NCBI GenBank assembly: GCA_042218325.1
Contig: JBDGRE010000013.1
Span: forward strand, 1-64,000
Source of the DNA: Candidatus Nanohaloarchaea archaeon
GTDB lineage: Archaea > Nanohalarchaeota > Nanosalinia > Nanosalinales > Nanosalinaceae
DNA: 64,000 nucleotides
Direction: 5' to 3'
A model generated the notes under the pieces. That model saw only the letters and a list, made by a program, of their open reading frames with translations. It ran no database searches and was not told the DNA's origin. Positions within the stretch are counted from its first letter, which is position 1. Every line of letters begins with the position of its first letter. The translations under genes and the position numbers were made by a program. Shown piece by piece: positions 1 through 23,757 of the stretch.

Positions 1-47
1 GTGGCCGACCATGTAATAGAAGGAGTTCGGGAAGCCAAGAGAAGTTA

Positions 48-61
48 AAAGCCCCGAGAGG
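48..61. repeat. att site, distal copy of the tRNA-Thr 3' end
   Basis: 14/14 match to 17283-17296. Confidence 0.8.
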
Positions 62-94
62 CCCGGATGTCTCAACTGGGGATCGAAGAGATAA

Positions 95-742
95 CTATCC
101 AAAGATTAGCTTCAAGACACCAAACACTATGAAAACAATCGCCAAAATCTGGTATATGATGTTCAGGTAATAGTTGCCCTTTTCTTCATCTTTACCTATC
201 ATATTCTGAATAGTGTTATAGATACCGAGAATTAACTTGAGGGTTCCTCCAAATATACCTATTGAAAGGTACAAGAGTGTATAGTAGAGATTGTATTCTC
301 TGTTGAAAATTATTATATCGTATGATTTTAGCCTATTAACAGTGATTTCAAAGGTAATTTGATCTCTTGCTTGACGGAGGTTTTCTCTACAGGAAGTAAG
401 ATTTTCGTATAATTGGGAGGCGTTTCTTTGACTTTCGGCTAATCTCTCCGAGAGATTTCCTTTAATGTCTCTACAGGATTCTAAATCATTACTCAATCTT
501 TCATTCTCATTTTGACAAGCAGTCAAATCGGAATTACATTCAGATAGATCGGATCTACAAATCTCAAGTTGATCTTGAGTTTCGTTCAAGGTTGCTTGAC
601 AATTTTGATATCTCTCTTTCCAAATGCTATCCTTAACCTGATAACCTCCGATTATTCCTGATCCGAGCATCAAACCTGCCAAACCGAGAATTAGTTTGTA
701 CTCCAGAAGAAAATCAATTATTTGGATATCCCCCAAATCCAT
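95..742 (-). CDS. Membrane protein with Cys-rich coiled coil
   Basis: N-terminal hydrophobic helix, heptad coiled coil with periodic Cys, two C-terminal TM segments. Confidence 0.7.
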   Translation of the reverse strand: MDLGDIQIIDFLLEYKLILGLAGLMLGSGIIGGYQVKDSIWKERYQNCQATLNETQDQLEICRSDLSECNSDLTACQNENERLSNDLESCRDIKGNLSERLAESQRNASQLYENLTSCRENLRQARDQITFEITVNRLKSYDIIIFNREYNLYYTLLYLSIGIFGGTLKLILGIYNTIQNMIGKDEEKGNYYLNIIYQILAIVFIVFGVLKLIFG

Positions 743-847
743 ACGGTAAGGTCTTTTTCTAACTCTTTTGAGTTTGATCCTCTTATCTAACTTGAAGTTC
801 GGATCCGTGACATCCTATATAAGACTGGGGAGCCGGTCTCTGGGACG

Positions 848-2173
848 ATGGCTAATACACCTGACCCGAAAGAGTATTTAGAAAAGAAGTCCAGCGAACT
901 GGACGAAGAAAATCTTCAAGCTCTCGAAGATTTCAGAAATACTTACAAACATAGTGAAGGAACACTTTACACCCACTTGTCTCGACTGTATCGTTTCTTG
1001 GATTTCGCCCCTGACAGTTTTGAGTTATCGAATCCAAAAGAGGAAGAGATATCAGATGCTATTGATAACATAGAGGATGATCCTGAATATGATGCTCGAA
1101 ACAGTCTCCTGAAAGCCTTGAACAAGTTTCTGAATATATACGATGGGGGCAAATACAAAGCTCTTACTGACACATACCAAACGAAGAAAGATGGAGGAGG
1201 TACCAAAGTTGAGAAATATATGATACTGACGGAGGATGAAGTTCAGGAAATAGTTTCACACTGTACCTCAATAAGGGATAAACTCTACATTCGGCTTATG
1301 TACGAAACAGGGAGCACGCCCGGAGAGCTACTTGTGGAGGACAAGGAGTTGGACAAGGAGTACGCACAGGTGAAGGATGTTGACCTTAACGAGGAGACCA
1401 TCTATATCCGAGGCAATAAAGATCACAAGTCACAGACTATGGAACTTCACAACAAGGGACTCCAGTATATGAGAGAGTACCTCCAGATGCATCCCGCTGT
1501 AGATAATATCTATAATACACATTCTGATGCCCCTCTTTTCCTAAAAGAGAGAGCTTTCAGTTGTAAGAACTGTGGTAAGCCGAAACAACCACACGAGGAC
1601 GAAGATCACCCTGACCGCAGTCTTGCTTGTGATAACTATGATCCAAACAGACTTGAAAAAGTAGGCGATGGAGGTATGAGACAGATTTTCAAAAATGCTC
1701 TTGAGAGAAGCTCGATAAATCGTGATATCAAGCAGAAATATATGAGAAAGTCGATCTTGTCAAAACTGGCTACAGAGCTTAAATACGAACAATTATGTAC
1801 TTTTGCGAGATGGGTGCCCGGAAGCTCACAGGCTGAACACTACATTAGACTGGACAATAAGGAGTTGAGAGATGAGATAGCAGGAATTTTCAAGAATAAA
1901 CAAACTGGAGAAAATAAGCAGACAATCACTTGTGGAAACTGTAACTCTCAAAATGACCCTGACAATCTTTCCTGTAAATTCTGTAACCGCCCTCTAAATG
2001 TGGCAAAGTCAGAGAAAATGAAACAGGCAGAAGAGGTAGCAAACCAACTGGCAGATATGAGTGAGGGAGATATGGAAAGATTCGTACAAATAGCACAGAT
2101 GAAAAATGGAGATAGCTCAATTGAAAGTATGGTTGAGGAGATGGTAGAGAAGAAAATATCTGGAGAGGATTAA
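848..2173 (+). CDS. Tyrosine recombinase-family protein with Zn ribbons, degenerate active site
   Basis: RDK..LMYETGSTPGEL box I, KYMRKS box II, RW..GS...HY; CxxC pairs internally and at the C-terminus. Confidence 0.8.
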   Translation: MANTPDPKEYLEKKSSELDEENLQALEDFRNTYKHSEGTLYTHLSRLYRFLDFAPDSFELSNPKEEEISDAIDNIEDDPEYDARNSLLKALNKFLNIYDGGKYKALTDTYQTKKDGGGTKVEKYMILTEDEVQEIVSHCTSIRDKLYIRLMYETGSTPGELLVEDKELDKEYAQVKDVDLNEETIYIRGNKDHKSQTMELHNKGLQYMREYLQMHPAVDNIYNTHSDAPLFLKERAFSCKNCGKPKQPHEDEDHPDRSLACDNYDPNRLEKVGDGGMRQIFKNALERSSINRDIKQKYMRKSILSKLATELKYEQLCTFARWVPGSSQAEHYIRLDNKELRDEIAGIFKNKQTGENKQTITCGNCNSQNDPDNLSCKFCNRPLNVAKSEKMKQAEEVANQLADMSEGDMERFVQIAQMKNGDSSIESMVEEMVEKKISGED

Positions 2174-2769
2174 GTTTCCTCAACAGAAACTATGGTTTGG
2201 GAGTAGTTAAGCTCCTGCTTTAGGGCAGTAGCATAGTCAAGTATTTCCTCGGTTGCGGCTATAGCCTGATTTAGTTCTTCATCCTTTGTCCGAGGAGCAT
2301 CCTTCAATACATACAGGAAATCTTTGTAAAGCATACTTTGAAGATTTGAATCCTCTTTTGATTTCACATAATTCTGGATATGCCATTTAAATACATCTTT
2401 AACTCTTGGATTTCTCTCAAACTCTGATAGATACTTCGAGGGCGCCTCTCTGGATATATCGGCTTTCCTTCCTTTTACTAATTCTTCCTCTTTTGCTTCT
2501 GTTTCTGCTACTTTCTTCTTGACCGATAGTTGCCAGTCTGAAAAGAAATTATCCCAATCTACATAGTAAAGCCTTTTTCGACCGTCTTTTTCGCTTTTGA
2601 CAATTTCTTGTTTTTTTAGTGCTGATAGGGCTGAACTGACATTTCCTTTGTCAATTCCAGTGGCCTCTGAAATACTTGAAGGGTTCCTATTCTCCCCCTT
2701 TGTAATTTCTCTAAACACTCTATAAGGAGTTTTTGGCTCCAGAATTTCGGTTTTTTTATTTAATTCCAT
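2170..2769 (-). CDS. ArsR/wHTH transcriptional regulator
   Basis: PSSISEATGIDKGNVSSALSALKKQEIVKSEKDGRKRLYY winged-HTH pattern. Confidence 0.85.
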   Translation of the reverse strand: MELNKKTEILEPKTPYRVFREITKGENRNPSSISEATGIDKGNVSSALSALKKQEIVKSEKDGRKRLYYVDWDNFFSDWQLSVKKKVAETEAKEEELVKGRKADISREAPSKYLSEFERNPRVKDVFKWHIQNYVKSKEDSNLQSMLYKDFLYVLKDAPRTKDEELNQAIAATEEILDYATALKQELNYSQTIVSVEET

Positions 2770-2771
2770 AC

Positions 2772-2842
2772 ATCAGTATGAGTCATACTTATATTTAAAA
2801 GCCTTTGGTTCTAAATAAGAAATCAGTATGAGCCAAACTGAT
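2772..2842. promoter_or_regulatory. Divergent promoter with two 21-bp palindromic operators
   Basis: ATCAGTATGAGTCATACTTAT (2772-2792) and ATCAGTATGAGCCAAACTGAT (2822-2842) flank TATA-like TATTTAAAA. Confidence 0.75.
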
Positions 2843-2983
2843 AAAACAGATTCAAAAGAAGACCCGGTCAAAATCGTAGAAAAAGCCCTTGAAATACCAG
2901 AAACGATTGTAGAGGAACTTCCTCCAGTTTACAAGCGACAATACAAACGCCTCTGGGACAAGATCAGTGGTGATGAAAAATGA
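2828..2983 (+). CDS. Small 51-aa protein (not in ORF track)
   Basis: ATG at 2828, MSQTDKTDSKEDPVKIVEKALEIPE...GDEK; ATGA overlap with the next gene. Confidence 0.65.
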   Translation: MSQTDKTDSKEDPVKIVEKALEIPETIVEELPPVYKRQYKRLWDKISGDEK

Positions 2984-5235
2984 GTGAAGCTACAAGCAAA
3001 GAACTGGAAGATGGGAAAATATGGATAGAAAACATAAGGAAAGAAAATAATGGTACGAGAGGCGATATAGGGTACAAAGGCTACGATAGAGAAGTAACTG
3101 AAAGAAAAAAGCTCTCTGAAAATGGATTCAAAAGATTCGCAAACCTCGTAGAAGAAGTCGTAGAAGATGTAGATGAAAAAGAGAAAACAGACATTTTCAA
3201 GAACCTATTTCTACTCCGAAACGAAGCAGTAGAACAATCCAATCAGGACAATTCTCTCTTCCAAGAAATCGAGCTTGATCCAGAAATACTTGAGATAGAC
3301 GGACAGGAAATAGCAGTAGAAACTCCTGTCAACATCTTTGTTCAGGAATTAGTGAAAGAGCACAAGAATCTACAACTAACCAAGAGCCAAAGAATGGACA
3401 CAGAGAAGCTATTCAAAATATATAGAGCCACAGACGGAGAAGGCTCCAAACAAAACGATATCTACATCATTACCGATCCAGAGGAAACCATCAGGCTCGG
3501 AAACCAAAGACTACACTTGAAGCCCGTGGATATCAGCAAAGATCCATATAGAGATTACCTCAAAGAGAGATGGAAGGACCTTGACACAGACGGAACTGGC
3601 CTCGGCTTTGACGATTTCATCGATCAGAACCAAGGAAGATATTTGAGAAAAACTTCTGGGCTTCCTCAAGAATCAGAGGAAAAGCTCAAAGAATTAGACA
3701 ACGATGAACTGTGTGATATACTGCTCAAATACTTCCGTGAAAAGGTAGAGCTTGACGAAAAACTGGAACAAGTACTATTCCCTCTCTTCGTGACCCACGA
3801 TAGTACAAAAGTTGACACAGAAGATGTGATGCCATTTGAACCTCACGGCTTCCTTTTCACGAACTCATCTGTCGGAAAATCTACAACAGCCAAAAAGATA
3901 GGATATGTAACCGATGAAGCAACTCCAGCAGGATTAATAGGCTACATATCTGCCGATGAAGGTGTTAAAAGAGGTATAATCCACGGAAGAACCAAGCCAA
4001 TATTTGCTGATGAAATAAACTTCCACGGAGAAACTAAACTCAACGACAATTTACTGGAGCTTCTCGAACAAGGAGAGAATAGACAAGTGAAGGCCGCAAA
4101 AGAAATGAGAACACGATTTTACAGTTCTCTGGTATATATGGGCAATCCCGTAGATGACAGGAGCTTTGCCAATAAACAAGAGCTTGAACCTGTAGAGAGG
4201 TTCCAGATGATGCTTGATTCAGTCGGGAGTAATCTTCAAGCTCTTGGATCAAGACTGGGCTGGATCATCTTCGATCAGGAACTTGACACAGCAGGAGGAA
4301 AAGGCAAGGTCAGACTCAATAGAGAGGAAAGAGAAAAACTCGAAATTGTCACTAATTGGATTAGAAAAGAAGTGTCAGAAGAATACACGAGGATCCACGA
4401 AGAGTTGAGAGAATGGCTCGGACAAAAGTACCCGGAGAGCTACCACGAGAAGATTGACAAGATCGACTTCAACGAAAAGATGGAAAACTTCTGGCAGAAC
4501 CACAAAGAAGCATATAGACACACTCGTGGGCTTGCCTTGAAAGGTGCTGTTCTCAAGAATCTGTCAGATATAATAAACGAGAGCTACAACATCGAAGATA
4601 TCAAGAAAGACGCGGAGGATTGTTTTGAAGATATTCTCGATGTCAACAAAGAGACTATGGCGAAGTTAAACGCAGAAGTGAGCTTTGAACTTGAAAAAGA
4701 ACAGGCAAGAGCCATACTTGAAGATCAAAGGCCTGAATACATCAAACTATTTGTGAAGACAGTGGTAGCTTACGCCAGAGAAAAAGAAATTGAAGAGTAC
4801 ACTTCTGCCAGCGAACTAAAGGCCGTCTGGAGTGATATACGAGAAGACCTTGATGAGGTAAAAGAAGGTTCAAAATATTGGAAATGGAGCAGGATAGAAA
4901 ATAGCGTCAAGGATAATATAGGCAAATCAAATCAGGTCTTGACCGAGAGATACGGCCTGATCTTGAGCAATTCCGAAGATGTACTAATGGTTAAGAGTAA
5001 GGATTTAGGCTTCATCAAGTACAGAAGGTCTGCCAATATCGGAAGTTCTTCTATTTCGGAGGAGAATGGCAGGTACCAAAGGTCACTTGAGTCACAGCAG
5101 GAAGGTGACCGAAGTGACCAACGGAACCAAGCAATCTCTGGTGAAATAGAAGGAGGAAGCGAAGGAACTGATTTGAAGCCAGAAGAAGCGTTGAGAAAGA
5201 GGCTCGAACAGGAAGGTGATGGAGATGGCAATTGA
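2980..5235 (+). CDS. Divergent MCM-family AAA+ helicase (element replication protein)
   Basis: SSVGKST Walker A, TPAGL, FADE Walker B, LLELLEQG..VKA, MGNP, ALGSRL arginine finger, in MCM order. Confidence 0.7.
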   Translation: MSEATSKELEDGKIWIENIRKENNGTRGDIGYKGYDREVTERKKLSENGFKRFANLVEEVVEDVDEKEKTDIFKNLFLLRNEAVEQSNQDNSLFQEIELDPEILEIDGQEIAVETPVNIFVQELVKEHKNLQLTKSQRMDTEKLFKIYRATDGEGSKQNDIYIITDPEETIRLGNQRLHLKPVDISKDPYRDYLKERWKDLDTDGTGLGFDDFIDQNQGRYLRKTSGLPQESEEKLKELDNDELCDILLKYFREKVELDEKLEQVLFPLFVTHDSTKVDTEDVMPFEPHGFLFTNSSVGKSTTAKKIGYVTDEATPAGLIGYISADEGVKRGIIHGRTKPIFADEINFHGETKLNDNLLELLEQGENRQVKAAKEMRTRFYSSLVYMGNPVDDRSFANKQELEPVERFQMMLDSVGSNLQALGSRLGWIIFDQELDTAGGKGKVRLNREEREKLEIVTNWIRKEVSEEYTRIHEELREWLGQKYPESYHEKIDKIDFNEKMENFWQNHKEAYRHTRGLALKGAVLKNLSDIINESYNIEDIKKDAEDCFEDILDVNKETMAKLNAEVSFELEKEQARAILEDQRPEYIKLFVKTVVAYAREKEIEEYTSASELKAVWSDIREDLDEVKEGSKYWKWSRIENSVKDNIGKSNQVLTERYGLILSNSEDVLMVKSKDLGFIKYRRSANIGSSSISEENGRYQRSLESQQEGDRSDQRNQAISGEIEGGSEGTDLKPEEALRKRLEQEGDGDGN

Positions 5236-5851
5236 GAATCCAGAGAGTTTAGAAGACATAGTTGGCCATCAGGACAAGAAACCGACATTTCAGAAGTATA
5301 TTGAAATCGGTGAAATAGTGACAGACCTGATGTTTTCTGGGCCACCCGGAGTAGGTAAATCAGCAATAGCACAAATTCTACAAAAAGAAACTACAAGCGG
5401 TGAAATCAATAGGAGACGGATTGTGTGTGGAGAAACCAAGAATAAAGGGGAAGATAACACCCCTCGAAATGTGAGAGAAAAAATTGGAGACTCGTTGGAT
5501 AAACTGCCGTTAATGAATGATCCTCATAATGTTGTAATACTTGAGGAATTTGATAGCTTCAAGAAAGATGAACAGAAGAAATTCAAGGGCCTATTTGAGA
5601 GGGAAGGAAATGCCAGAATTATCCTCGTTACAAATCATCCAGAGGACATACCTGAACCAGTAAAATCTCGTTTCAAGCAGTTCAGGTTCTCAAATTTGGA
5701 AGATGAGGAAATAAGGGAACTCGCTAAAAGATTTGAAGAAGAAAAAAGTCTCGATGTTGAGGAAAAGACTGTAGAGCTGATAGTTAATAAAGCGGATGGG
5801 GATGCTCGAACAGCAATACAGGAGCTTAAAGAATTGAAGGCTCGTCTGTAA
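5216..5851 (+). CDS. Truncated RFC small-subunit-like AAA+ ATPase
   Basis: PESLEDIVG, GPPGVGKS, ILEEFD, VKSRF, GDARTAIQEL; lacks the C-terminal collar. Confidence 0.8.
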   Translation: MMEMAIENPESLEDIVGHQDKKPTFQKYIEIGEIVTDLMFSGPPGVGKSAIAQILQKETTSGEINRRRIVCGETKNKGEDNTPRNVREKIGDSLDKLPLMNDPHNVVILEEFDSFKKDEQKKFKGLFEREGNARIILVTNHPEDIPEPVKSRFKQFRFSNLEDEEIRELAKRFEEEKSLDVEEKTVELIVNKADGDARTAIQELKELKARL

Positions 5852-5993
5852 GACAATATAAGCTATTCAGAATGTAGAGGGATTTAAGGATCCAGAAGAG
5901 GAAAGTACATAAGATTTGATTACTTCACAATCATTACGGAATAGCGGAAAGCTACGGACATTTTATTTTAAACCGAATATAAAATTGATAATT

Positions 5994-7097
5994 ATGGAAG
6001 CTATGGACAAAAGCGGGTTTTTAGACCTCAAGAACGAGGAGTTTGAGGAAATTGGAGAGTTCACGGAGTTCTTGATAGATCAAAGAGATGTCTCCGAATT
6101 TGACGATACCCTGAAAGTTATCGGCTCAATAACCGATTTTGACAGCCAAGAGGAGTTTGAATCCAGTATAAGGAAAGAGTTTCAGATCAGCAAGAGATAC
6201 GGAAACCTTCTCTTATTGAGAAAAGAGTACTCGGTGAAAGAAGTAGAAAGCTATGTTTTCTTCGACAGAGAGAACAAAGTATCCCTATTCTTCACTCTGG
6301 AGAACAAGACCGACATAATCCCTGACACGATAATCAACTACATAGAAGAAGGAGCCAACATATCGAGCCTCTGGATCAATCCAAGTACTTTAGATGAGAT
6401 ACGAGAGGAAATCGAGAGAGACTACAACAACACCCAGATCACGCAGTTCGTGGCCAAAAGAGAGCTCTACACAGATATTGATTCAAGGTTGAGACCGGGA
6501 CGGAAGAGAACAATCGAATACTACGGAAATGACGCAAAGCAGACTCTAAAAGAAATGAAGCAGATGTACGGAGTTCTGCCAACAGTTTTAGAGTTCAGAC
6601 TGCCGAACAACAACCAGTTCAGAATTGACAGGAAGGGAATATTCACCATAAGAAGAGGGGAATTTGACCTGATATTTGAGATCATTAACAGAGTTCTACA
6701 GAGACTGCTCGACTTGAGAGATGTAGTAAACACCTCTGGATACCAGATAGTGAGAACAGACACCAAGAACAGAAGTTTCGAGGTAGAAAGTAAGGAGCCT
6801 TGGTCTATCCAGTTAAAGAAGAAGATCGAGTACGATGATGTTCCGAAGATCAAAGAGGAAATCGAGGAAGGTGAATGGGGGTTCACCTTTGTTGACAGCG
6901 TGGCTAAAGAAGGCTCGCTGTATCTATCCGCAAGAATCGTAGACACCAGAAAGAACAGGGAAATAGAGATTGTCTCTGACGGCGAAGAAATCAAAGTTTA
7001 CCCGCCAGAGGACGAGGAAATTGGTTCTTCGCTACGGTTCTTCGAGTTCGTACAAGAAACAATTGACCGAAATGCGGAGGCGGTCGAGAGTGTATAA
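5994..7097 (+). CDS. Hypothetical protein, first gene of a two-gene operon
   Basis: Long acidic ORF; ATG at 5994 preferred over upstream TTG; 12 nt from the next gene, which has an AGGAGG RBS. Confidence 0.7.
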   Translation: MEAMDKSGFLDLKNEEFEEIGEFTEFLIDQRDVSEFDDTLKVIGSITDFDSQEEFESSIRKEFQISKRYGNLLLLRKEYSVKEVESYVFFDRENKVSLFFTLENKTDIIPDTIINYIEEGANISSLWINPSTLDEIREEIERDYNNTQITQFVAKRELYTDIDSRLRPGRKRTIEYYGNDAKQTLKEMKQMYGVLPTVLEFRLPNNNQFRIDRKGIFTIRRGEFDLIFEIINRVLQRLLDLRDVVNTSGYQIVRTDTKNRSFEVESKEPWSIQLKKKIEYDDVPKIKEEIEEGEWGFTFVDSVAKEGSLYLSARIVDTRKNREIEIVSDGEEIKVYPPEDEEIGSSLRFFEFVQETIDRNAEAVESV

Positions 7098-7109
7098 GGA
7101 GGGGGATCT

Positions 7110-8189
7110 ATGGAAGAACGAGACGAATATCAGAAACTGAAAGACCAGATCAATACAGACGAACAGAAAGAGTGGTTAGAATCTCTCAAGGAAGAAGAAT
7201 TTGAAGAAGCATTTGATTTCAGAAAGAATGAGATAAAGGAGTCTCTCGAAGATGACGGATTCCATATGGAGATGATACAATCGGTGGCGGCCGCATTTCT
7301 CAAAGGTTCGGACATAAGCGAGGAGACTGGATATAACTTCCTATTTACAGAACCACTTGTGGAGAAGGGAGAAAAGAACTTCGATGTCCTTATCTATAAT
7401 ACAGAATCCAACTCCGCAGTCTTCGTGGAATGTAAGTCCAGTATCAGCGACAGATCGATGAATGGTGTACTGGAAGATACCGAGCAAGCGATTGAAGCGG
7501 TAGAAGAGCACGAAGAATACCTCGAACGGCAGATCGGGGACGATATTGACCACAAAGGATTCGTGCTAATGACAAGTGCGTCAGATATACAGAAACTGAA
7601 AGACAGGGACTGGGAATTTAACGGAGGAGACGATACCTGCCTCTGGTATATCGACATTTTCAAGCAGAAGAAAATCCTTCTGGAGAGAAGCAAAGGAAGT
7701 CACAATCACAAGAAATTAGCCGAGAAGATGAAGAATGGAATCGTTGTTGACGACAGAAGAATCGACATCAAGCTAATCTACAACACGAACAACTACAGAG
7801 CCATAAAGAAAGTCCTGATAGATATTTTGAGAGACAACCAGAAGATGGAGCGGGAAGATCCAAAGGAGTTCGATAAAGAAAGACTCGCAGAAACACTCAC
7901 AGATATGGTGAAAATGGGCACCTCCGATGTAGACGAATTAATGGTTGAGAAGGCTGAAAACTTGGAGGAAATCGCCAAGAAATGCGAGGTTATCAAGGAA
8001 GGAAACGAACTGGACTACAGAATCGTATCAAGCTACTCGAAAGTCAAAGGAATCAGAAAGGACATAGAAAGCAAGCTCATCAACAATATAGCATCTGAAA
8101 GAGCCGAAGAAGACGCCAGAGAAAGAGCAGTAGAGAGATTCAAGAAAGGAGAAGGATCTGGCCAACAAGGTCTCGACTCCTTCAACTAA
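7110..8189 (+). CDS. PD-(D/E)XK nuclease-domain protein
   Basis: TEP....KNFDVLIYN...AVFVECKS motif. Confidence 0.7.
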   Translation: MEERDEYQKLKDQINTDEQKEWLESLKEEEFEEAFDFRKNEIKESLEDDGFHMEMIQSVAAAFLKGSDISEETGYNFLFTEPLVEKGEKNFDVLIYNTESNSAVFVECKSSISDRSMNGVLEDTEQAIEAVEEHEEYLERQIGDDIDHKGFVLMTSASDIQKLKDRDWEFNGGDDTCLWYIDIFKQKKILLERSKGSHNHKKLAEKMKNGIVVDDRRIDIKLIYNTNNYRAIKKVLIDILRDNQKMEREDPKEFDKERLAETLTDMVKMGTSDVDELMVEKAENLEEIAKKCEVIKEGNELDYRIVSSYSKVKGIRKDIESKLINNIASERAEEDARERAVERFKKGEGSGQQGLDSFN

Positions 8190-8229
8190 CATACACTATA
8201 ATTTGATTCATCGAAAAGCAATCTAATAT

Positions 8230-8916
8230 TCAGCTATTTTTATCTATTAATTCAAGTTCGTGGTAGAGTTCGTAGTAAGGGCCTACAAGGAGTCCAGAAG
8301 TGAAGAACCAGATATACTCCTCTATAGGAACTCCTAACCACAACATCCCTGAAAGTTGATCCAATAGGTAAGTCTGTTGGACAAAATCAGGATTATACAG
8401 GAGGAGTATCTGATAACCGACAATCGAGTAAGTAAAGGCTATCAAACCAGTCCCCAGAGACGCCTTAAGCAAATCTCTCCTGTAATAAACGATCAACATA
8501 GCCCCCAAGATGGACGAGATGCTCCAAGAAAGCCAAGACGGAAAACCTGACACAGTATAAGTCACGAAGAAAGAACCCAGAAACAGAGTCAGAACCATTC
8601 TCGTCCTACTCCAACCATCAGAAAACTTATCACTTTCCACTAACTCTTTCTGGAGGAAGAACTCATAACCAGCTATCAGAATACCTCCAATAGCGAAACC
8701 GAATATAAAGTCCTCAACACCGACAATAGTGCCCGTTACTGTCATAGGCCGCCACCAATCCTGCGTCCATAGAAAATATGAAGAACCGATAGACCACAGT
8801 CCTACGAAAACACCGAACTTTCTCATCTGATCCCGAAGATCCGTCCTCTTGTAATAGATTATGCCGTAAATGGCCAGCGTCATCAAACTGCCCAACAGAA
8901 AAGTATACTGATCTAT
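8230..8916 (-). CDS. Lycopene cyclase-domain membrane protein
   Basis: Two repeats ending VGVEDFIFGF and GVPIEEYIWFF; start uncertain (ATA at 8916 behind GGTGA, or TTG at 8895). Confidence 0.7.
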   Translation of the reverse strand: MDQYTFLLGSLMTLAIYGIIYYKRTDLRDQMRKFGVFVGLWSIGSSYFLWTQDWWRPMTVTGTIVGVEDFIFGFAIGGILIAGYEFFLQKELVESDKFSDGWSRTRMVLTLFLGSFFVTYTVSGFPSWLSWSISSILGAMLIVYYRRDLLKASLGTGLIAFTYSIVGYQILLLYNPDFVQQTYLLDQLSGMLWLGVPIEEYIWFFTSGLLVGPYYELYHELELIDKNS

Positions 8917-8918
8917 AC

Positions 8919-10013
8919 TTAATCACCTTTCTTTTCAGCAACTACCAAGATAAAGTTGCCTTTTGTTTTCCACCCATACTCCGGGTTTCCTGTTAAATCA
9001 TCTTCAAACTCTGACCTCTTCCACTTTATATCATATTCCTTTAATTGTTGTTTAAGAAAGTCTCTTGCTTCTTTCTCGGAATAATCCTTTTCTTGAACTT
9101 CTTTCTCCTGTGTATTTGGATATATTCTTTCTATGTCCGTTGCGAAGTCAAATATCAACTTTCCTTCGGTTTTAAGGACTCTGTCAATTTCTTCAAAAAC
9201 CTCTTTCAGAGTTTCTTTACCGAACAAATGTAGTGTTCCCGTACAGAAAACTCCATCGAAGCTATCTTTTTGGAATGGGAAACTTTCGGTCAGATCAAAC
9301 ACATTCTTCTCCAGATTCTCTCGTTGACTTTGCGATAAACTATTTGAGAGTTTGTTAAGAGCTTTCTCGTCTATATCTGTGGCCACCAGCTCGTCTACTT
9401 TTTCAAGTAGTTCAGGGGTGTATCTTCCATCTCCTGCGGCCAAATTAAGCCATTTACCATTTATTTCCTCATTTTCTATTGCTTTTAGGGTTTCTTCATC
9501 TCCTTCTCCCCAGATTGGACTACTTCTAATTTCCACATTTATCCAAGTTTCTGTGCCGAATCTTGGTTCGTCAAAAACCTTGATTTGGTCTGGCTCTATC
9601 TTGTAGAAGATAGAGTCGAGTTCCTCTAATTCTTCCTTGTTGGAGGCAAACTCTCCGAGTTCAGAGTATCTGTCAAGGTAGAGATCCAGAACTTTCTCTA
9701 CTTCTTCTACTTTTTCGGCTTTCCCAAATATTTGGAGACCTTGCTTATCATCCGTCCATTCCTGATGACTATCGTGAACATCCACAGCTACAGAGTCATT
9801 ATTTTCCAAGTTTTCTCCGTGTTCGGTGTCTGGAGGAGTTAGGATATAGAGGTTTAGCTCGTCATCGAAGGTGTAGAAACAGGTGTTGATATGTGGATCT
9901 TCACCTTTTACGGTCGCCATCGACAACAATCTGTTCTTCGATAAGATCTCTCTGATGCTCTCTTCAACCTCTTCTCTTGTCCAGTCGCCTTCATCCAGAA
10001 GCTCTATATCCAT
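8919..10013 (-). CDS. Pyridoxamine 5'-phosphate oxidase-like FMN-binding domain fused to class I SAM methyltransferase
   Basis: LLSMATV..PH..FY..HGENL..QGLQIFG; then WLNLAAGDGRY, ATDID, SFDGVFCTGTLH. Confidence 0.8.
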   Translation of the reverse strand: MDIELLDEGDWTREEVEESIREILSKNRLLSMATVKGEDPHINTCFYTFDDELNLYILTPPDTEHGENLENNDSVAVDVHDSHQEWTDDKQGLQIFGKAEKVEEVEKVLDLYLDRYSELGEFASNKEELEELDSIFYKIEPDQIKVFDEPRFGTETWINVEIRSSPIWGEGDEETLKAIENEEINGKWLNLAAGDGRYTPELLEKVDELVATDIDEKALNKLSNSLSQSQRENLEKNVFDLTESFPFQKDSFDGVFCTGTLHLFGKETLKEVFEEIDRVLKTEGKLIFDFATDIERIYPNTQEKEVQEKDYSEKEARDFLKQQLKEYDIKWKRSEFEDDLTGNPEYGWKTKGNFILVVAEKKGD

Positions 10014-10023
10014 TTGTCTTCAC

Positions 10024-10572
10024 CTAATTATGTCTGCTGTTATGTTCTTCTCCGAGCCCTTTCCTTTCTTCTATTTCTTTAAGTTGTTTCTTGACTGGTT
10101 CTTGTGGTACTTCTGATCTGGTGTAGGCTCCAGATACTTTGTAGATGTTCTCTGATTCTACTTTGAATATTTTCTTTTCAGATTCTCCAGCGTATTTCTC
10201 ATCGTAGTTCTCGAAGTATTCTTTCTGCTTTTCTTCATCTTCGAATCTCTTGCTGAAAAGCGTCCTAACCGAATCTTCCAAGTTTTCGTCCTCTAATATT
10301 TTGGCTTTAGCGTCTATCTGTATTCCATCTGCCTCTTCTGGAGGATTTGTAGAGTTATAGATTGATAAGGCAACCTCGCTGTTCTCTTGTATATATTTGC
10401 CGTGTCGAGAAGTCTTCAAAGAAACAAAGTAGAAGTTTAATTCAGGATCAACAGCATAGTATACAGCCGAGACCCACGGATTATCATCTTGGGAAATCGC
10501 TATATCCATATACCTGTTGTTCAGAAGCATTTCCACACATTTTTCGACCATTTCAGAGTTTTCTTCATTCAT
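10024..10572 (-). CDS. Pyridoxamine 5'-phosphate oxidase family protein
   Basis: PWVSAVYY..FYFVSLKTSRHGKYI..VALSIY..GIQI. Confidence 0.8.
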   Translation of the reverse strand: MNEENSEMVEKCVEMLLNNRYMDIAISQDDNPWVSAVYYAVDPELNFYFVSLKTSRHGKYIQENSEVALSIYNSTNPPEEADGIQIDAKAKILEDENLEDSVRTLFSKRFEDEEKQKEYFENYDEKYAGESEKKIFKVESENIYKVSGAYTRSEVPQEPVKKQLKEIEERKGLGEEHNSRHN

Positions 10573-10576
10573 AGTA

Positions 10577-10999
10577 TCACATAGAAATTTCGTGGTAGTT
10601 TGCTATCAGGTTTTGTAGACTTTCGTTTGAAGATTTCTGAATAAGTTCTTCTGGTGTGAGCCATTCGTAGCTGGTAATGTTTTCGTCTGCTGGATTGTCG
10701 GAAATATCGATTTCCTGCGTATCTATTTCTCCCTCGAATACTGTTAGAACTACTTGATCTCCGTCATCGTCAGCTCCTACAAAGAAATAGTACATTCCGA
10801 CTGGATCTCCTACCTCTACCTGTGTTGATAGTTCTTCCTGAATTTCTCTTTCCAGAGTTTTCACGGGTTCTTCGCCGTATTCGACTTTGCCTCCCGGCAA
10901 CACCCAATATGTTCGATCCTGTGCCTCGGTTTTCAAAACCAAAATTTTGCCGTCCTTCTCAATCAGAGCCTTCACAGCAGGTTTAACATCTCTGCTCAT
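10577..10999 (-). CDS. NUDIX hydrolase
   Basis: LPGGKVEYGEEPVKTLEREIQEELS Nudix box. Confidence 0.9.
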   Translation of the reverse strand: MSRDVKPAVKALIEKDGKILVLKTEAQDRTYWVLPGGKVEYGEEPVKTLEREIQEELSTQVEVGDPVGMYYFFVGADDDGDQVVLTVFEGEIDTQEIDISDNPADENITSYEWLTPEELIQKSSNESLQNLIANYHEISM

Positions 11000-11052
11000 A
11001 AAGGAGAATTGAAATAAGAAATATTATAGAATTTAGGCTTTAAACCGATACT

Positions 11053-11436
11053 ATGGATGGCGTAGTTGTTGTAATTCGAGAAGGAGATAAGTACCTGATG
11101 GTTCAAGATGCCGAAGGCAGTTATGAAGGGAAATGGGCTCCAGTACACGGCTCTCTCGAAGAAGGAGAAACACCAGAAGAAGCAGGAATCCGAGAAGTAA
11201 AAGAAGAAGTAAACCTCGAAGTAGAACTTACTCAAGAAGACAAGATAACTAAAACGCCAGCAGATTACAAGACAGATGAACTCCACTGGTACCTAACAGA
11301 AGAATATAGCGGCGAAATACAGGTAGAGGAAAGAGAAATCAGCGACTACAAATGGATGACTTTAGACCAAATAGAAGAAAGAGAACTGCTCCCACAAGCA
11401 GAAAACTTCTTTCAGGACTACAAACCTCAAAGGTGA
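11053..11436 (+). CDS. NUDIX hydrolase
   Basis: GSLEEGETPEEAGIREVKEEVN Nudix box. Confidence 0.9.
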   Translation: MDGVVVVIREGDKYLMVQDAEGSYEGKWAPVHGSLEEGETPEEAGIREVKEEVNLEVELTQEDKITKTPADYKTDELHWYLTEEYSGEIQVEEREISDYKWMTLDQIEERELLPQAENFFQDYKPQR

Positions 11437-11443
11437 ACACATA

Positions 11444-11934
11444 ATGGACTTCGTCATAAGAACCAATTACTCTCAAGAATTAAAGAACACGATAGATTCA
11501 AAGGCTGAAAATAGACAAGAACTTTCTGAAATAAAGGACGAGTTCTACAAGCCCGAAGAAACTGATCTACCAGATTTCAGTCCACGAGATGTTATCATCA
11601 GAAAACGAACTTTCCCAGATAGGGAGACACTGGTCAAGATAAATATTATCCAGAAACCGACTGGCTACACCGATACAAAAGAAGATTTAGAGAGCCTTGA
11701 GGACTATGAAAAATGGGGCGAGTCGATTCTTACGCCGTAGAATATTAGTTGAAAATAGAGAACGAAGAGATCCCAATTCTCATAGAAACATTTGACTTCG
11801 GCAAGTACATCAAGATAGAATCGCCGTCACCTGAAATACTGGACAGTATTATCCAAGAACTCAATCTTGATGAAGGCGATATATTAGAGAAGAACTCGGC
11901 AGAACTGCTGGCCGAAAATATGAATAAAATTTAA
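11444..11934 (+). pseudogene. Disrupted CYTH-like protein
   Basis: Two consecutive fragments (98 and 61 aa) with DEFY, IRKR, FGKYIKIE; frameshift and TAG near 11720-11748. Confidence 0.45.
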
Positions 11935-11963
11935 GCACGAGTTCAATTTATAGGTCAAAAACT

Positions 11964-12713
11964 ATGGAAAAAGTAAACTTCACCAACAGTCGGGGACTGG
12001 AACTGGTAGGTAATTACTGGGAGTCGGACTCTGATGCCGCAATAGTGATGAGTCACGGATTCACAGGAGATAAGCACGAGGGAGGGTATTTTGATACCGT
12101 AGCAGAGGCACTGAATGAGAGAGGTTATAATGTCCTAACATTTGACTTTTCAGGAAGGGGAGAAAGTCAGGATGATGCGATAACTATAGAAAAAGAAGTG
12201 GATGATCTTGATTCAGCTCTCCAGTATCTTGAGGAAAATAAAAATATAGATAGGATAGGTCTCTATGGATATAGCCTCGGTGGACTTGTTTCGCTACGAA
12301 ATGACAGGCCGGAAATTGAAGCTATAGTATTAACATCTCCTGTTACAGCAGAAATAGAAGCTCTGAAACTCCAAAGTTTTGAGAAAGGTGACACATTCAC
12401 ATATCAAAACGGAGTCTATATCAAGCATAAGGAAGATGAAGTGAGAAAGGAACTCCCGATAGATGAGAAAATATCAGAAGAGGCAAATAAAATAGACCAA
12501 GACCAACTCCTATCAGACATCGAAACTCCTGTGTTGATTATTCACGGAGACCAAGACTCTGTGGTTCCTCTGGGAGACTCCAGAAATGCTGTGGAAAAAC
12601 TGGAACACGGAAAACTCGAAGTAATAGAAGGACTGGATCACAGCTACGACACCCACTACGACCAGATAATACAGAACGCCGAGAACTGGTTCAACCGATA
12701 TATGGAGCCTTAA
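11964..12713 (+). CDS. Alpha/beta hydrolase
   Basis: HGFTG, GYSLGG nucleophile elbow, HGDQDSVVP, GLDH. Confidence 0.9.
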   Translation: MEKVNFTNSRGLELVGNYWESDSDAAIVMSHGFTGDKHEGGYFDTVAEALNERGYNVLTFDFSGRGESQDDAITIEKEVDDLDSALQYLEENKNIDRIGLYGYSLGGLVSLRNDRPEIEAIVLTSPVTAEIEALKLQSFEKGDTFTYQNGVYIKHKEDEVRKELPIDEKISEEANKIDQDQLLSDIETPVLIIHGDQDSVVPLGDSRNAVEKLEHGKLEVIEGLDHSYDTHYDQIIQNAENWFNRYMEP

Positions 12714-12746
12714 TTTATTGAAATTTCGGGCATTAAATCTTTCTTA

Positions 12747-13601
12747 ATGCTTGATTGGATTGCTTTCGCACTGATCGCTACCTTTGCCTTCGGGTTACAG
12801 AATTTTGGTTACAAGATAGCGGCTGAAAGAGGCTGTAACAGTGCCACATTAATGTCCTCATTTATCGGCACCACGATTATTCTTTCTGCTGTAGCTCTTG
12901 TTGTGACTTGGAATTTCTCTATCAATAGCTTGTATCTGTTTCTGGCTTTTGCTGGTATTAACGCCGCATCCTTCGTTGTAAAATTCATACTGCGACAGGA
13001 GGCTTTGAAACTAATTCCACTGGTTATTGGTTTGCCTTTATCGAAGATGAGTGCGGCTGTCGCCGCCGCAATAGGAATACTTTTCTTGGGAGAACAACTA
13101 ACCCTGTTCAACTTCGCAGGAATCCTAATCTCGATGGCCGCCGTCTGGATACTATCGCAGAAAGATGATGGCGATGATATCAAGGACTTCAAGAAAGGAA
13201 TAACTTTGATGCTGGTAGTTGTACTGGCTGCGGCAATAGGTGACTTGGCGATCAAACTTGCTTCAACCGAAGGCAACAACTTCCTGTTCATAGTCACAAC
13301 CTACGGGATGATGTTCTTCCCGGCCCTGATGCTTCAAGAAAGGTTCAGCAGTATAGAGGAAGCGACCCAGAAATCTTCTTTGAAATGGGGAATAATTATC
13401 GGAGTTATCAACTTTGTCAGTTTCTCCTCGCTTTTAGCCGCCCTCCAAACAGGGCCTATGGCAATCATCTTCCCGATGACAACACTCGGAATCGCACTAT
13501 CAGTCGCATTAAGCGTAGGAATCCTGAAAGAAGAACTAACCCGGAAAAGACTCACAGGATTAATACTCGCCCTGATAGCTTTAATCCTGCTCAACCTCTA
13601 A
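12747..13601 (+). CDS. EamA/DMT family transporter
   Basis: About 10 TM helices in two repeats; ILFLGEQLT and ILKEELT motifs. Confidence 0.85.
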   Translation: MLDWIAFALIATFAFGLQNFGYKIAAERGCNSATLMSSFIGTTIILSAVALVVTWNFSINSLYLFLAFAGINAASFVVKFILRQEALKLIPLVIGLPLSKMSAAVAAAIGILFLGEQLTLFNFAGILISMAAVWILSQKDDGDDIKDFKKGITLMLVVVLAAAIGDLAIKLASTEGNNFLFIVTTYGMMFFPALMLQERFSSIEEATQKSSLKWGIIIGVINFVSFSSLLAALQTGPMAIIFPMTTLGIALSVALSVGILKEELTRKRLTGLILALIALILLNL

Positions 13602-13966
13602 ACATTCTCAACTAATTCAGAAAGAATTTCGACCAATTCTCCCTCTCCCTCATAACTAACGACTGTATCGGTAACTGCCGATAGCGAGCTTGAAGGATCA
13701 GCACTTTCTTGATAAATACATATTACAGGAACATCGTACATATCAGCCCAGCCAAGCTCTATGCCTAAACCAGTAGATGGCTCTGAAACCTCTCCTATCA
13801 TTAGATCACATTCTTCTCGGAGAAAAGTCTTGGAATCGAAGATTCCCTCCGAATCCTCGTGAGGAAAAACCAGATTGTGCTCCTCATACAACTTGCTATC
13901 CTTCAAAGGCTGGTAGAGACTGCTCTTGTAGTCAATACTGCTGGAATGCCCGACATAAATCTCCAT
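13598..13966 (-). CDS. Nucleoside 2-deoxyribosyltransferase/RCL-like protein
   Basis: IYVGHS..CDLMIGEVSEPSTGLGIELGWA. Confidence 0.75.
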   Translation of the reverse strand: MEIYVGHSSSIDYKSSLYQPLKDSKLYEEHNLVFPHEDSEGIFDSKTFLREECDLMIGEVSEPSTGLGIELGWADMYDVPVICIYQESADPSSSLSAVTDTVVSYEGEGELVEILSELVENV

Positions 13967-14021
13967 AGAAAAACACTTTAGAAACGAAATATTATAGGAA
14001 TTTCTGAATAAAAACTGTGTT

Positions 14022-14624
14022 ATGGCGGTCGGAACTGTTGACGCAATAGTATTCTACAAAGCCAGAGAAGAAGACAAAGAGTTCTTCCAAGAACTCAAAC
14101 AACAAGACAAAGAAAGACTGGCAGAACTTGGTGTAGACCTGACCGACTACGGCGAACCCGGAATCTACACCGTCCTAATCGAGAGAGGAAAAACACCATA
14201 CAAAGAAATGTTAGCCACAGCAGGAGGACACATAGAAAACGGCGAAACACCTACAGAAGCGGCAATAAGAGAACTAAAAGAAGAAACAGGAATCCAGACA
14301 GAACATCTCGAAACAGTAACAGAAGCAAAGGAAAACTTGGAACTTGTATTCGACCCAAGATACGATCCAGAAGACAAACTGCCCGAAGACGAGCCAGAAG
14401 AAATCTACCTGATCGATGGACTGGAAGACAGAGACGGAGAAGACTTCCACTACTACACCGCCGTATTTGACTACCAGCCAGAAAACCCTGACAGACGAAA
14501 CTTCCAGCTAAAAGGAGAGACAGACGCCGAAAAATCATTCTGGGTTCCATTACAGGAATTGCCGAAAATGGCTTTCACACAGCACAGAATCGTAGAATGG
14601 GGTAGAAAACAGTATGAAAGATAA
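14022..14624 (+). CDS. NUDIX hydrolase (ADP-ribose pyrophosphatase-like)
   Basis: TVDAIVF, VLIERG..PY, GGHIENGETPTEAAIRELKEETG, MAF..H. Confidence 0.85.
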   Translation: MAVGTVDAIVFYKAREEDKEFFQELKQQDKERLAELGVDLTDYGEPGIYTVLIERGKTPYKEMLATAGGHIENGETPTEAAIRELKEETGIQTEHLETVTEAKENLELVFDPRYDPEDKLPEDEPEEIYLIDGLEDRDGEDFHYYTAVFDYQPENPDRRNFQLKGETDAEKSFWVPLQELPKMAFTQHRIVEWGRKQYER

Positions 14625-15300
14625 AGAGTACAACGCAGTAATTTTCGATGTAGACGGCGTCATAGCCCAGACAACAGAAGACTGGGAATGGATGGACAAA
14701 GTATACCGACAACACTTTCCACAACCCGATAAAAACGGCTACAGCGACTGGGAAGAATACCTACAGGCATACGGCAAAATATTCAGAACTCTACACACAG
14801 AAACCGAAGACGGAGTATTCGAGGAAGTAGGGCTGGAAAATGAACAGGTGCTCGAAGCGTATAGTCAGGTTCAGGATAAGAAGAACCGTATAATGAACCA
14901 GTTTTCAGTCTACTCTGACGCTGTAGAACTATTGGAATACTTGAACGAAGAGGATTACACGGTAGCGGCTGTCAGCAACGCCAGAGAAGATAATGTCGAA
15001 CTATTCTTGGAGCAAAACGATTTGCTGAAATACTTTGACTATGTAACAGGAGTAAAGCTCGAAGACTTCAACAGTTTCAAACAGAGAAAGAAACCTAACC
15101 CTGCTATGCTTCAAGAAGCAATCCAAGAACTCGACCTCAACCCAGAAACAACAGTAATGATAGGAGATTCCTCAACAGACCGAGACGCCACCCGAAAAAT
15201 AGAACAACTCGACTACATCCATCTCAATAGAGGAGTGGAAGTAGATCCTGATGGAGAACAGACAATAGAAAACTTGAACGAACTCAAGGAGGTTCTCTAA
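14614..15300 (+). CDS. HAD-family hydrolase
   Basis: FDVDGV, VSN, KPNP, IGDS..D motifs. Confidence 0.9.
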   Translation: MKDKEYNAVIFDVDGVIAQTTEDWEWMDKVYRQHFPQPDKNGYSDWEEYLQAYGKIFRTLHTETEDGVFEEVGLENEQVLEAYSQVQDKKNRIMNQFSVYSDAVELLEYLNEEDYTVAAVSNAREDNVELFLEQNDLLKYFDYVTGVKLEDFNSFKQRKKPNPAMLQEAIQELDLNPETTVMIGDSSTDRDATRKIEQLDYIHLNRGVEVDPDGEQTIENLNELKEVL

Positions 15301-15303
15301 CCT

Positions 15304-15909
15304 ATGATGGTCAGCACCCATATTCTAATCGGGGGACTAATAGGATACCTTTTCTCAACTGCCATCTCTGTAAATCCAGTTACTCTTGCTTTAGCAGGAA
15401 TGTTAGGAGGTCTTATACCCGAACTTGATTTTCTGATAGGACACCACAGGAAAACACTCCACTTCCCATACAGCTATTTCCTCCTGTCAATACCTGTTCT
15501 CATTCTGATCCCTTTCTTTCAGGCAGAACTTTTGATATTGCTTGCTACCGTGTTAGTGTCGGCTGGCGTTCATTCGTTTATGGATATTTTCGCTGGAGCC
15601 GAACTCCGTTCTTGGGACGAATCCGAGTGGGAAGATACAGCAGTATATGACCATATCAGAGATAAGTGGATTCAACCCCAAAGAATAGCTTACGGAGGAT
15701 CTATGAGAGACTTTCTGCTCTCAACTATCTGCTTTTTCTCGACTATCTACCTGATAAATGATCCAAAAATTCTCCTTATCGCAACTGGACTGATAGTTTT
15801 CTCTGTAGCCTATACTATGGGAATCAAGAAAGCATCAGACGAAATAATAGATGGAAAATATGCTACTCTGAATGGATTTATACGATCAAAATTGAAGGCT
15901 CTTCTATAA
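15304..15909 (+). CDS. Membrane-bound metal-dependent hydrolase
   Basis: STH, IPELD, HRKTLH, HSFMD motifs with TM helices. Confidence 0.85.
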   Translation: MMVSTHILIGGLIGYLFSTAISVNPVTLALAGMLGGLIPELDFLIGHHRKTLHFPYSYFLLSIPVLILIPFFQAELLILLATVLVSAGVHSFMDIFAGAELRSWDESEWEDTAVYDHIRDKWIQPQRIAYGGSMRDFLLSTICFFSTIYLINDPKILLIATGLIVFSVAYTMGIKKASDEIIDGKYATLNGFIRSKLKALL

Positions 15910-15966
15910 TCTTTCAGAACTGCCGTGCCGCTCTTTTAAGCGGCTAAAAAATATATTTTCTTGAAG

Positions 15967-17010: not shown

Positions 17011-17284
17011 AACTATATCGGTGTGAAATCCACAATATTCCTATATACAACGTAGGAAGTAGAGTCAAATAACGCTGATATTATGAGTCGGAAACCGAGT
17101 GGTCTAATATAAGTCATAATTGAAAAACTAAACAACGCTGATGACTCTTTCTACCTGAAAAAATATACGAAGAAGTTCTATAGTCATTATTTTAGGCTAA
17201 ATGACTGATTAAAGTAGAAAATCCAAATCAGACAAGACAGAGGATTTCTCTAAATTATCTCTTCGACCCCCAGTTGAAAGTGAA

Positions 17285-23536: not shown

Positions 23537-23757
23537 GGTGACATTTAAAACAGAAACGGATTTTTATGGCTTTCGGATGACAACTTGTATTTTGGTCCCG
23601 AAGAGATAGTATGTTCATGGACCGGCCCTCAACCAGAGCTAATGCTCAACACGCCCTCTTCAGAGGCTCTTCAAGCTTTGTAGCCTTTATCAGGGTTAGT
23701 AGTATTTATAAGGCTAACCTTTTGTCTCGTCTGGAATTGAGGTGAAAATCCTACTTG

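Follow-up and report, generated by a model that had tools for sequence, protein, structure and literature searches.

Apart from CRISPR and restriction-modification (RM), few defence systems have been recognised in archaea, and this applies to DPANN archaea in particular (PMC12988326). Two described systems whose logic resembles that of the genes analysed here are KELShedu (a Shedu variant with a DNA-binding partner) and Upx, each of which combines a DNA-binding or sensing partner with a PD-(D/E)XK nuclease effector. The same logic appears to recur in a gene pair, hereafter A-B, in the first 64,000 nucleotides (nt) of contig JBDGRE010000013.1 (the window) from a Candidatus Nanohaloarchaea archaeon (assembly GCA_042218325.1; 1.07 Mb in 35 contigs, 96% complete), to which both the size of the genome and the acidity of its proteins fit. 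The original prediction, made from the letters of the window, had proposed that the two genes form a new anti-viral system consisting of a sensor or scaffold and a nuclease effector. We found that A-B is a strictly conserved and widely mobile unit, present in Halobacteriota, nanohaloarchaea, a pleolipovirus and plasmids, which is new with respect to that prediction. As to its role, we give about an even chance to the reading that A-B is a self-contained mobile two-gene module, encoding a heteromeric nuclease, for defence or for conflict between genetic elements, a role that we infer from the architecture of the pair and from its neighbours.

The positions of the genes, their domains and the surrounding features are collected in Table 1. 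Both the list of open reading frames (ORFs) and the sequence bear out the tight operon of the original prediction, with its 12-nt gap and an AGGAGG motif ahead of B. The statement that no methyltransferase, ATPase or helicase is encoded in the operon is likewise true of the two genes, while an RFC-like AAA+ gene on the same strand ends 142 nt upstream of A (at 5851), the intervening sequence being AT-rich. This RFC-like gene was considered as a third component of the system and rejected, as it is near the pair at only 2 of the 23 loci inspected and is separated from it by an opposite-strand gene in genome G448. The AT-rich stretch that directly precedes the start codon of A may serve as an archaeal promoter of the TATA type, from which A-B would be transcribed with a short leader or none, and, going by the sequence, A-B would be an accessory gene pair with a promoter region of its own in the window. 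A scan for sigma-70 promoters and terminators, which is unsuited to archaea, returned nothing above shuffled sequences (4 sigma-70 sites versus a shuffle mean of 4.5).

By sequence and fold, B belongs to the PD-(D/E)XK DNA nucleases and carries, fused to its nuclease domain, a DNA-binding domain of the winged-helix type. The motifs FDVL and VECKS, on which the nuclease had originally been recognised, occupy residues 91-94 and 106-110 of the translation, and the helical extensions that had been placed on either side of the core appear as two long helices in the AlphaFold2 model (pLDDT 94.4, pTM 0.90), which also contains the restriction-endonuclease-like alpha-beta-beta-beta-alpha-beta core. 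A profile search against 1.84 billion representatives assigned 306 representative clusters to the B family (E<=1e-3), with members mostly 350-390 amino acids (aa) long. D92 is the catalytic acidic residue expected on strand 2 of the superfamily, and E107-C-K109 the (D/E)-x-K of strand 3. In an alignment of 107 rows, D92 is present in 107, E107 in 99 and K109 in 98, the full D/E-E/D-K triad in 96, and the positions conserved in at least 90% of the rows include H52, F63, P82, L83, E107, K109, W179 and L203; the B protein of the window holds the full set of H52, E81, D92, E107 and K109. From these counts it follows that the motif is conserved and is no chance match.

Structural comparison using VIA-align matched residues 47-209 of B to Upx (9wuf_A, Z 9.7, root-mean-square deviation (rmsd) 2.9, 124 residues aligned), and further to XisH-like 2okf_B (Z 9.3), AF2093 2ph7_B (Z 9.0), NucS 2vld_B (Z 7.9) and FokI (Z 7.5), and it matched residues 226-325 to the winged helices of Hel308 (Z 7.3) and the JetABC kleisin (Z 7.3), to MukF and to the winged helix of Cdc6/ORC (Z 6.1-6.5). 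Because of these matches to two parts of the model, we read B as a nuclease followed by a winged helix, with one long helix at either end. Foldseek against the PDB gave no row for B at E<=1e-3, though its top rows were all restriction-endonuclease-like. In the sequence-based searches, B matched no Pfam or NCBIfam family at E<=0.1, including PD-(D/E)XK families such as NucS_C and PDDEXK_1, no PADLOC family at E<=1 and no PDB sequence; its sole result against PHROGs was a helix-turn-helix (HTH) family at E 0.0065, and tblastn against the phage collection returned nothing at E<=1e-3.

A is predicted to consist of three TBP-like domains, one after the other, that are arranged as in RdgC, a resemblance that is middling and at the level of the fold, so that we do not class A as RdgC. 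Its model (pLDDT 84.9, pTM 0.84) shows three alpha/beta modules. A had originally been described as a protein with no recognised motif, which does not hold, for it belongs to two families, both of unknown function, namely phrog_24372 (E 1.4e-72, residues 5-365) and PF27341.1 (AF_0896_M), the latter precomputed for A and all 23 of its homologues. The family name AF_0896_M is also given in the ESM Atlas, where the clusters neighbouring A carry PF25924 (MJECL33) or PF27341. Our local copy of Pfam, which lacks PF27341, yielded 0 families for A at E<=0.1 and none to RdgC (PF04381); A had no match in NCBIfam or among the PDB sequences, and matched HEC-01B alone in PADLOC (E 0.0015, 16.5 bits, residues 30-115). 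A Foldseek search with the first protein, which had been suggested as a check, gave RdgC (2owl_A) as the best whole-chain match (E 5.3e-5, probability 1.00, about 300 columns, template-modelling (TM) score 0.28-0.34), followed by RnlA, TBP and CENP-L/Iml3. VIA-align matched A to a KA1 domain (Z 8.1, residues 41-124), to CENP-N (Z 7.7, residues 263-367) and to RdgC (Z 7.2, residues 36-240, rmsd 4.9 A, 185 aligned), and its BFVD matches are phage RdgC-like 'recombination-associated' proteins and viral TBPs.

A and B are predicted with high confidence to bind each other, which is support for such a complex and not proof of it. The prediction scored 0.79 (0.80, 0.79 and 0.76 in the individual runs) versus at best 0.00 in 3 controls, with at least 92% of the contacts common to the runs and a partner pLDDT of at least 82; of 80 solved complexes 58, and of 110 mismatched pairs 2, attain the mark against which such scores are read, counts that apply only approximately here, where our own alignments were used. 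On the side of A, the predicted interface involves the third domain (residues 250-339 and 366-367), and on the side of B, the edge of the nuclease sheet (47-98, 142-145 and 183-187), the linker (215-220) and the winged helix (230-245 and 268-270); the reported interface residues do not include D92, E107 or K109. An independent point of consistency is that 10 of the 14 invariant or near-invariant positions of A within residues 257-312 are predicted contacts.

To describe the distribution of the pair, we used an even sample of 401 Halobacteriota genomes and a set of 70 nanohaloarchaeal genomes that includes the window's own. A was found in 15 of the 401 Halobacteriota genomes, in all 15 of which a full-length B lies next downstream on the same strand. 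B matches were found in 23 of these genomes, namely, the 15 with A, 3 with fragments (containing a stop codon in the first, consisting of a 114-aa ORF in the second and lying at a contig edge in the third) and 5 with weak partial matches (E 4e-4 to 5e-6) to the winged-helix or the nuclease part only. In the nanohaloarchaeal set, A is present in 3 of the 70 genomes, B follows A in both of the genomes other than that of the window, and G434, a genome of the same genus, has no copy of the pair. The patchy presence in both sets gives the pair a mobile or accessory character, and the co-occurrence on which the original prediction had been made to depend holds without exception among full-length copies.

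The pair also extends beyond these two sets. Among the 50,697 records of the phage collection, A has a single match, the pleolipovirus Harhisp1, whose gene HarHp1_105 encodes a protein with 25% identity to A (E 5e-50). The next gene, HarHp1_100, overlaps it by 4 nt. Its product, which came to notice only through its place beside A and was then compared by pairwise BLASTP, aligns with B from end to end (24% identity, pairwise E 3e-9), and the gene after HarHp1_100 is an Orc1-type rep gene. Neither HarHp1_105 nor HarHp1_100 is discussed in the available portion of the Harhisp1 paper. When 185,579 species genomes were scanned for patterns of a 5-row B alignment, four loci were found in metagenome-assembled genomes of Methanosarcinales and Methanophagales, with A directly upstream of B in all three testable ones, B of the fourth starting 266 nt from the contig end. 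In viral contigs, scanning with the alignment of A gave 55 pattern matches, 0 of them confirmed. Seven haloarchaeal plasmid records contain A, and in the two that were inspected, pHLAC01 of Halorubrum lacusprofundi and a Haloarcula plasmid, B-like genes annotated as hypothetical lie 1-2 nt downstream of it. By our own ORF calls, the spacer is at most 12 nt, or the genes overlap by 4 nt, at 20 of 22 loci. The identity matrices of A and B over 22 pairs are correlated (Pearson 0.95, with 0 of 2000 Mantel permutations as high), a result that plain linkage would give as well.

We inspected about 7 kb on each side of the pair at 23 loci, judging defence association by eye. Mobile-element markers, or a virus or plasmid as carrier, were found at 12 of them, namely, the window, Harhisp1, the two plasmids, L047 (two Orc1/Cdc6 genes), L048, L055 and L063 (integrases), L057 (an SSV-type integrase), L054 (a TnpB-like gene), and L056 and L058 (insertion-sequence remnants). 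As regards proximity to defence islands, another of the checks proposed at the outset, recognised defence genes lie within this distance at 7 of the 23 loci, 6 of them independent. A type I RM system adjoins the pair in L049 and L050, which are syntenic with each other; L063 contains a C5-methylase with an NgoPII-type enzyme (type II RM) and a PIN gene; an OLD/HEC-01A-like ABC ATPase (E 3.6e-34) is adjacent in L057; and there are a dGTPase (E 2.4e-74) in L003, RhuM/PDC-S05 in L006 and weak DrmA/DrmC-like matches in L048. In Harhisp1, a RelE/CopG pair lies two genes away.

In the window, the pair is situated, as had been described, between the core of an element (integrase, winged HTH (wHTH) protein, 751-aa P-loop protein and RFC-like gene) and its cargo. 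Because of the direct repeats, the inverted repeats, the overlap with a tRNA gene and a step in G+C content, we place A-B on an integrative element of roughly 17.2 kb. The G+C content is about 0.40 over bases 1-17,000 and about 55-60% in the rest of the window, with the step at roughly 17 kb, and the 40% of the island holding A-B compares with roughly 57% for the genome. The intron-bearing tRNA gene was seen by Rfam alone; ARAGORN found no tRNA anywhere in the 64-kb window. An empty-site comparison with G434 gave an orthologous tRNA region of only about 75-90% identity and no match to the 47-nt left flank. The 751-aa protein has no match in Pfam, NCBIfam or PHROGs; its ORF overlaps that of the RFC-like AAA+ protein by 20 nt, and the two may be the replication module of the element. 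Three NUDIX hydrolases, a PNPOx-methyltransferase fusion and a second PNPOx protein are encoded in the cargo, together with HAD, alpha/beta-hydrolase, EamA-transporter and lycopene-cyclase-like membrane proteins. A related element in genome G448 (locus L063) has a 64%-identical integrase and a diverged RFC-like gene (24% identity). Elsewhere in the window, positions 23755-26012 form a second low-GC patch (about 41-45%), encoding a 199-aa membrane protein with a terminal HNH-like CxxC...H motif and, adjoining each other, a putative nucleotidyltransferase and a small helical partner that look HEPN/MNT-like by eye; and over positions 63001-64000 the G+C content falls to 0.39, which may be the edge of another island.

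Table 1. Features of the A-B locus and its carrier element (positions in the window unless another locus or residues are given)
Feature	Position	Strand	Remarks
Gene A	5994-7097	+	367 aa from the first ATG of ORF 5916-7097
Gene B	7110-8189	+	359 aa
A-B spacer GGAGGGGGATCT			12 nt, after the A stop codon TAA at 7095-7097
AGGAGG, Shine-Dalgarno-like	7097-7102	+	7 nt before the B ATG at 7110
AT-rich stretch TTTATTTTAAA ... ATATAAAA	5962-5993	+	TATA-like runs directly before the A ATG
A, predicted domains	about residues 40-124, 127-240, 265-367		three tandem TBP-like/helix-grip modules (model)
B, N-terminal long helix	residues 17-62		AlphaFold2 model
B, predicted nuclease domain	7296-7739 (about residues 63-210)	+	H52, E81, D92, E107-x-K109
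B, predicted winged-helix domain	7785-8039 (about residues 226-310)	+
B, C-terminal long helix	residues 312-346		AlphaFold2 model
attL core AAAGCCCCGAGAGG	48-61	+	exact 14-nt direct repeat; only other copy in the window is 17283-17296
Terminal inverted repeat, 19 nt	72-90 with 17259-17277		1 mismatch; just inside each direct repeat
Integrase (tyrosine recombinase)	848-2173		C-terminal zinc-ribbon-like CxxC pairs
wHTH protein	2170-2769	-
751-aa protein	2980-5235		GKS/T P-loop read by eye
RFC-small-subunit-like AAA+ protein	5216-5851	same as A	211 aa; without the C-terminal collar region
Cargo	8230-15909		metabolic- rather than viral-looking
Second integrase (different tyrosine recombinase)	15961-17010		at the opposite element end from the 848-2173 integrase
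attR core	17283-17296	+	overlaps the 3' end of the intron-bearing tRNA gene; repeat family D6
tRNA gene with long intron	17285-17436	-	Rfam 48.4 bits, E 8.6e-8
Pentapeptide-repeat gene	L059:9368-10888
Pentapeptide-repeat gene	L066:5339-6805
Pentapeptide-repeat gene	L001:6242-7558

Under the reading that we prefer, in which A-B serves defence or inter-element conflict, A and B would assemble into a heteromeric nuclease, with the third domain of A docking, according to the model, on the face of B that its nuclease and winged helix form. A would be a sensing or licensing subunit that binds DNA or a foreign protein and controls when and where B cuts, and the pair would constitute a DNA-targeting conflict system without a methyltransferase, used for defence against viruses or for the exclusion of rival mobile elements. 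What stands of the sensor or scaffold with nuclease effector, put forward as a new anti-viral system, is the two-gene unit, the lack of a fit to any PADLOC system, the predicted binding and the presence of RM or other defence genes beside some copies; the degenerate triads, the many copies carried by viruses, plasmids or integrative elements near replication genes, and the loci with housekeeping neighbours alone speak against it in its simple form. Some of these and several further observations have to be set on the other side of our reading. At least 5 loci (L004, L005, L051, L053 and L064) have housekeeping or unknown neighbours only, and the defence association, seen by eye, is only qualitative. 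Alignment of 23 B proteins to the family profile showed a degenerate catalytic triad in 7 (those of Harhisp1, which is an active virus, L047, L053, L054, L055, L059 and the Haloarcula plasmid), while A is kept in all 7. On the maximum-likelihood tree, three changes of triad state are needed, and well-supported branches force at least 2 independent losses. As the triad has been lost repeatedly with the pair kept, DNA cutting cannot be a universal role of the family, and this loss needs an explanation under any reading. Moreover, the A proteins of non-halophiles, too, are mildly acidic (pI 5.3); its fold matches are middling (Z 7-8; RdgC TM score 0.28-0.34), so that DNA binding by A is suggested only by analogy; and the score of the complex expresses model confidence and is not a measurement. 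A pentapeptide-repeat gene, encoding a fold known elsewhere as a DNA mimic, lies near the pair in 3 of the 7 degenerate loci versus 0 of the 16 intact ones; in L059 and on the Haloarcula plasmid it is the adjacent, divergent gene, and in Harhisp1, where it is annotated with a C-terminal transmembrane domain, it lies two genes from the pair. A bolder version of our reading, which we hold to be rather improbable, is that A-B is the first example of a so far unrecognised immune system common to archaea and bacteria, in which an RdgC-like subunit of TBP fold would bind invading DNA or its ends and license the docked nuclease/winged-helix subunit to cut it without a methyltransferase or ATPase, and the nuclease-dead copies on haloarchaeal viruses and plasmids would be derivatives on the side of the virus, serving as decoys or anti-defence factors directed against the active system.

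That nuclease-dead variants are kept in viruses and plasmids is also a point in favour of a role in the maintenance of the mobile element, or as an accessory to its replication and recombination, with an RdgC-like DNA-binding protein and a resolvase- or NucS-like nuclease bearing a winged helix that would act on the DNA of the element itself, for instance by processing intermediates of replication or recombination, by modulating the host recombinase or in segregation. This account would fit the Orc1-type rep gene that adjoins the pair in Harhisp1, the two Orc1/Cdc6 genes near it in L047, the P-loop protein and RFC-like AAA+ protein that directly precede it in the window (an RFC-like gene being present in the G448 element as well), and the RdgC and phage RdgC-like proteins that are the best whole-chain fold matches of A. 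However, the pair stands alone among housekeeping genes in L004, L005, L051 and L053, where no replicon or integrase is nearby, no replication gene is consistently linked with it (the RFC-like gene being near it at 2 of 23 loci), and the adjacency of RM systems has no obvious place in such a role, which, together with the examples given, we regard as a minority possibility. Solitary insertions between housekeeping genes are also a property of selfish cassettes, and A-B might be an addiction module in which B is a toxic nuclease and A its stoichiometric inhibitor, so that loss of the pair kills the cell and the carrier DNA is stabilised. The strict pairing, the translational coupling through 4-nt overlaps, the tight contact with A predicted on the nuclease domain, and the carriage on plasmids, viruses and islets would all suit such a module; yet A matches B in size and, with its three conserved domains, goes far beyond the needs of an inhibitor, the reported interface leaves out D92, E107 and K109, A is kept with nuclease-dead B, and no family of toxin-antitoxin type matches in Pfam or PADLOC, all of which makes addiction quite unlikely in our view. 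It is very improbable that the two genes are a lineage-restricted housekeeping pair for DNA repair. While the nuclease domain of B resembles NucS/EndoMS (Z 7.9), and repair genes do lie beside the pair (DinB and EndoIII in L004, a UvrD-PDDEXK gene in L058), no more than 15 of 401 and 3 of 70 genomes contain the pair and a relative of the same genus lacks it, and it is carried by viruses and plasmids and, in the window, by a 40% GC island within a genome of roughly 57% GC.

If the preferred role in defence or exclusion is true, A-B provides a new partner fold for nuclease-based immunity, carried by nanohaloarchaeal integrative elements and pleolipoviruses; if the pair instead serves the DNA metabolism of the elements, a conserved and unstudied function of archaeal mobile elements has been identified. 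Under either reading, the active and nuclease-dead lineages are a ready natural experiment. The module is compact, its predicted heterocomplex is of high confidence, and it has no match in PADLOC. In addition, the pair is native to tractable haloarchaea, through the Haloarcula hispanica provirus Harhisp1 and pHLAC01 of Halorubrum lacusprofundi.

The claim that the pair matches no system that could be named was upheld in comparison with PADLOC-DB v2.0.0. No system model of this database fits A or B; B received nothing from it, and A only the HEC-01B match of 16.5 bits. Membership in KwaB/DUF4868, XisI or Shedu was rejected, as no hidden Markov model of theirs in Pfam or PADLOC matches, and so was membership among type II toxin-antitoxin systems, as no family of this kind in Pfam, PADLOC or NCBIfam matches and A is a protein of 367 aa with three conserved domains. 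Our literature searches on MJECL33, AF_0896, PF27341 and PF25924 found nothing relevant, though supplementary tables might list these families among candidates, and those on RdgC-like defence and archaeal defence candidates found no statement on the A-B genes. With KELShedu and Upx, A-B shares the logic described above, and no structure matched B better than the nuclease domain of Upx (Z 9.7), SduA being among the weak Foldseek rows of B (E 0.099-0.43); however, no PADLOC or Pfam model of these two systems matches A or B, and the folds of the partners are unrelated as far as compared. XisH, one half of the XisH/XisI pair that controls excision in cyanobacteria, likewise acts alongside a partner gene of a mobile element, and the XisH-like 2okf is the second-best structural match of the B nuclease domain (Z 9.3). 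Unlike B, XisH is about 130 aa long and has neither a winged helix nor long helices, and no XisI-like match to A is among the Foldseek and VIA-align rows shown.

B also resembles restriction enzymes of the DpnI type and others that combine a nuclease with a winged helix, as well as Type IV restriction, which has no methylase, in that a predicted nuclease is followed by a winged helix and the operon contains no methyltransferase. DpnI itself is in the fold list of B (Z 6.3, model range 50-306), with only 69 residues aligned, and the cleavage domains of FokI, BstEII, BsmI and McrC have Z 6.7-7.5; B is always accompanied by A, whereas DpnI-type enzymes have no such partner. That B might depend on DNA modification is, by this analogy, pure conjecture. 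A and RdgC, the recombination-associated DNA-binding ring of E. coli (2owl/2owy), are both made of TBP-like alpha/beta modules; however, the Pfam RdgC family does not match A, the TM score is 0.28-0.34 with an rmsd of 4.9-11 A, and RdgC acts without a nuclease partner, unlike A, which is paired with B. The nearest named relatives of A-B are, marginally and at a distance, the Pfam families MJECL33 and MJECL32 (PF25924/PF27326), whose function is unknown. On the large plasmid of M. jannaschii (NC_001732, L070), the two coding sequences which we take to be MJECL33 and MJECL32, having given them these numbers by gene order from the histone gene, are adjacent and overlapping and have the same order as A-B, a larger protein of unknown function followed by a protein with H...PD...ECKS. 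The similarity of A to the putative MJECL33 is unconvincing (hhalign E 0.065, probability 0.9%), and that of B to the putative MJECL32 is marginal (hhalign E 0.0011, probability 20%, 69 columns), with the H, D and ECKS motifs aligned. In the ESM Atlas, B neighbours a PF27326 cluster (TM 0.56/0.61 over 270 residues), and 19-72% of the members of the neighbouring clusters carry the PF25924/PF27326 families. Around the putative MJECL33-MJECL32 genes, positions 17149-37339 of NC_001732 hold the conflict genes VapBC, an OLD-type ATP-dependent endonuclease, EVE, PIN and type I RM, as well as two AAA ATPases.

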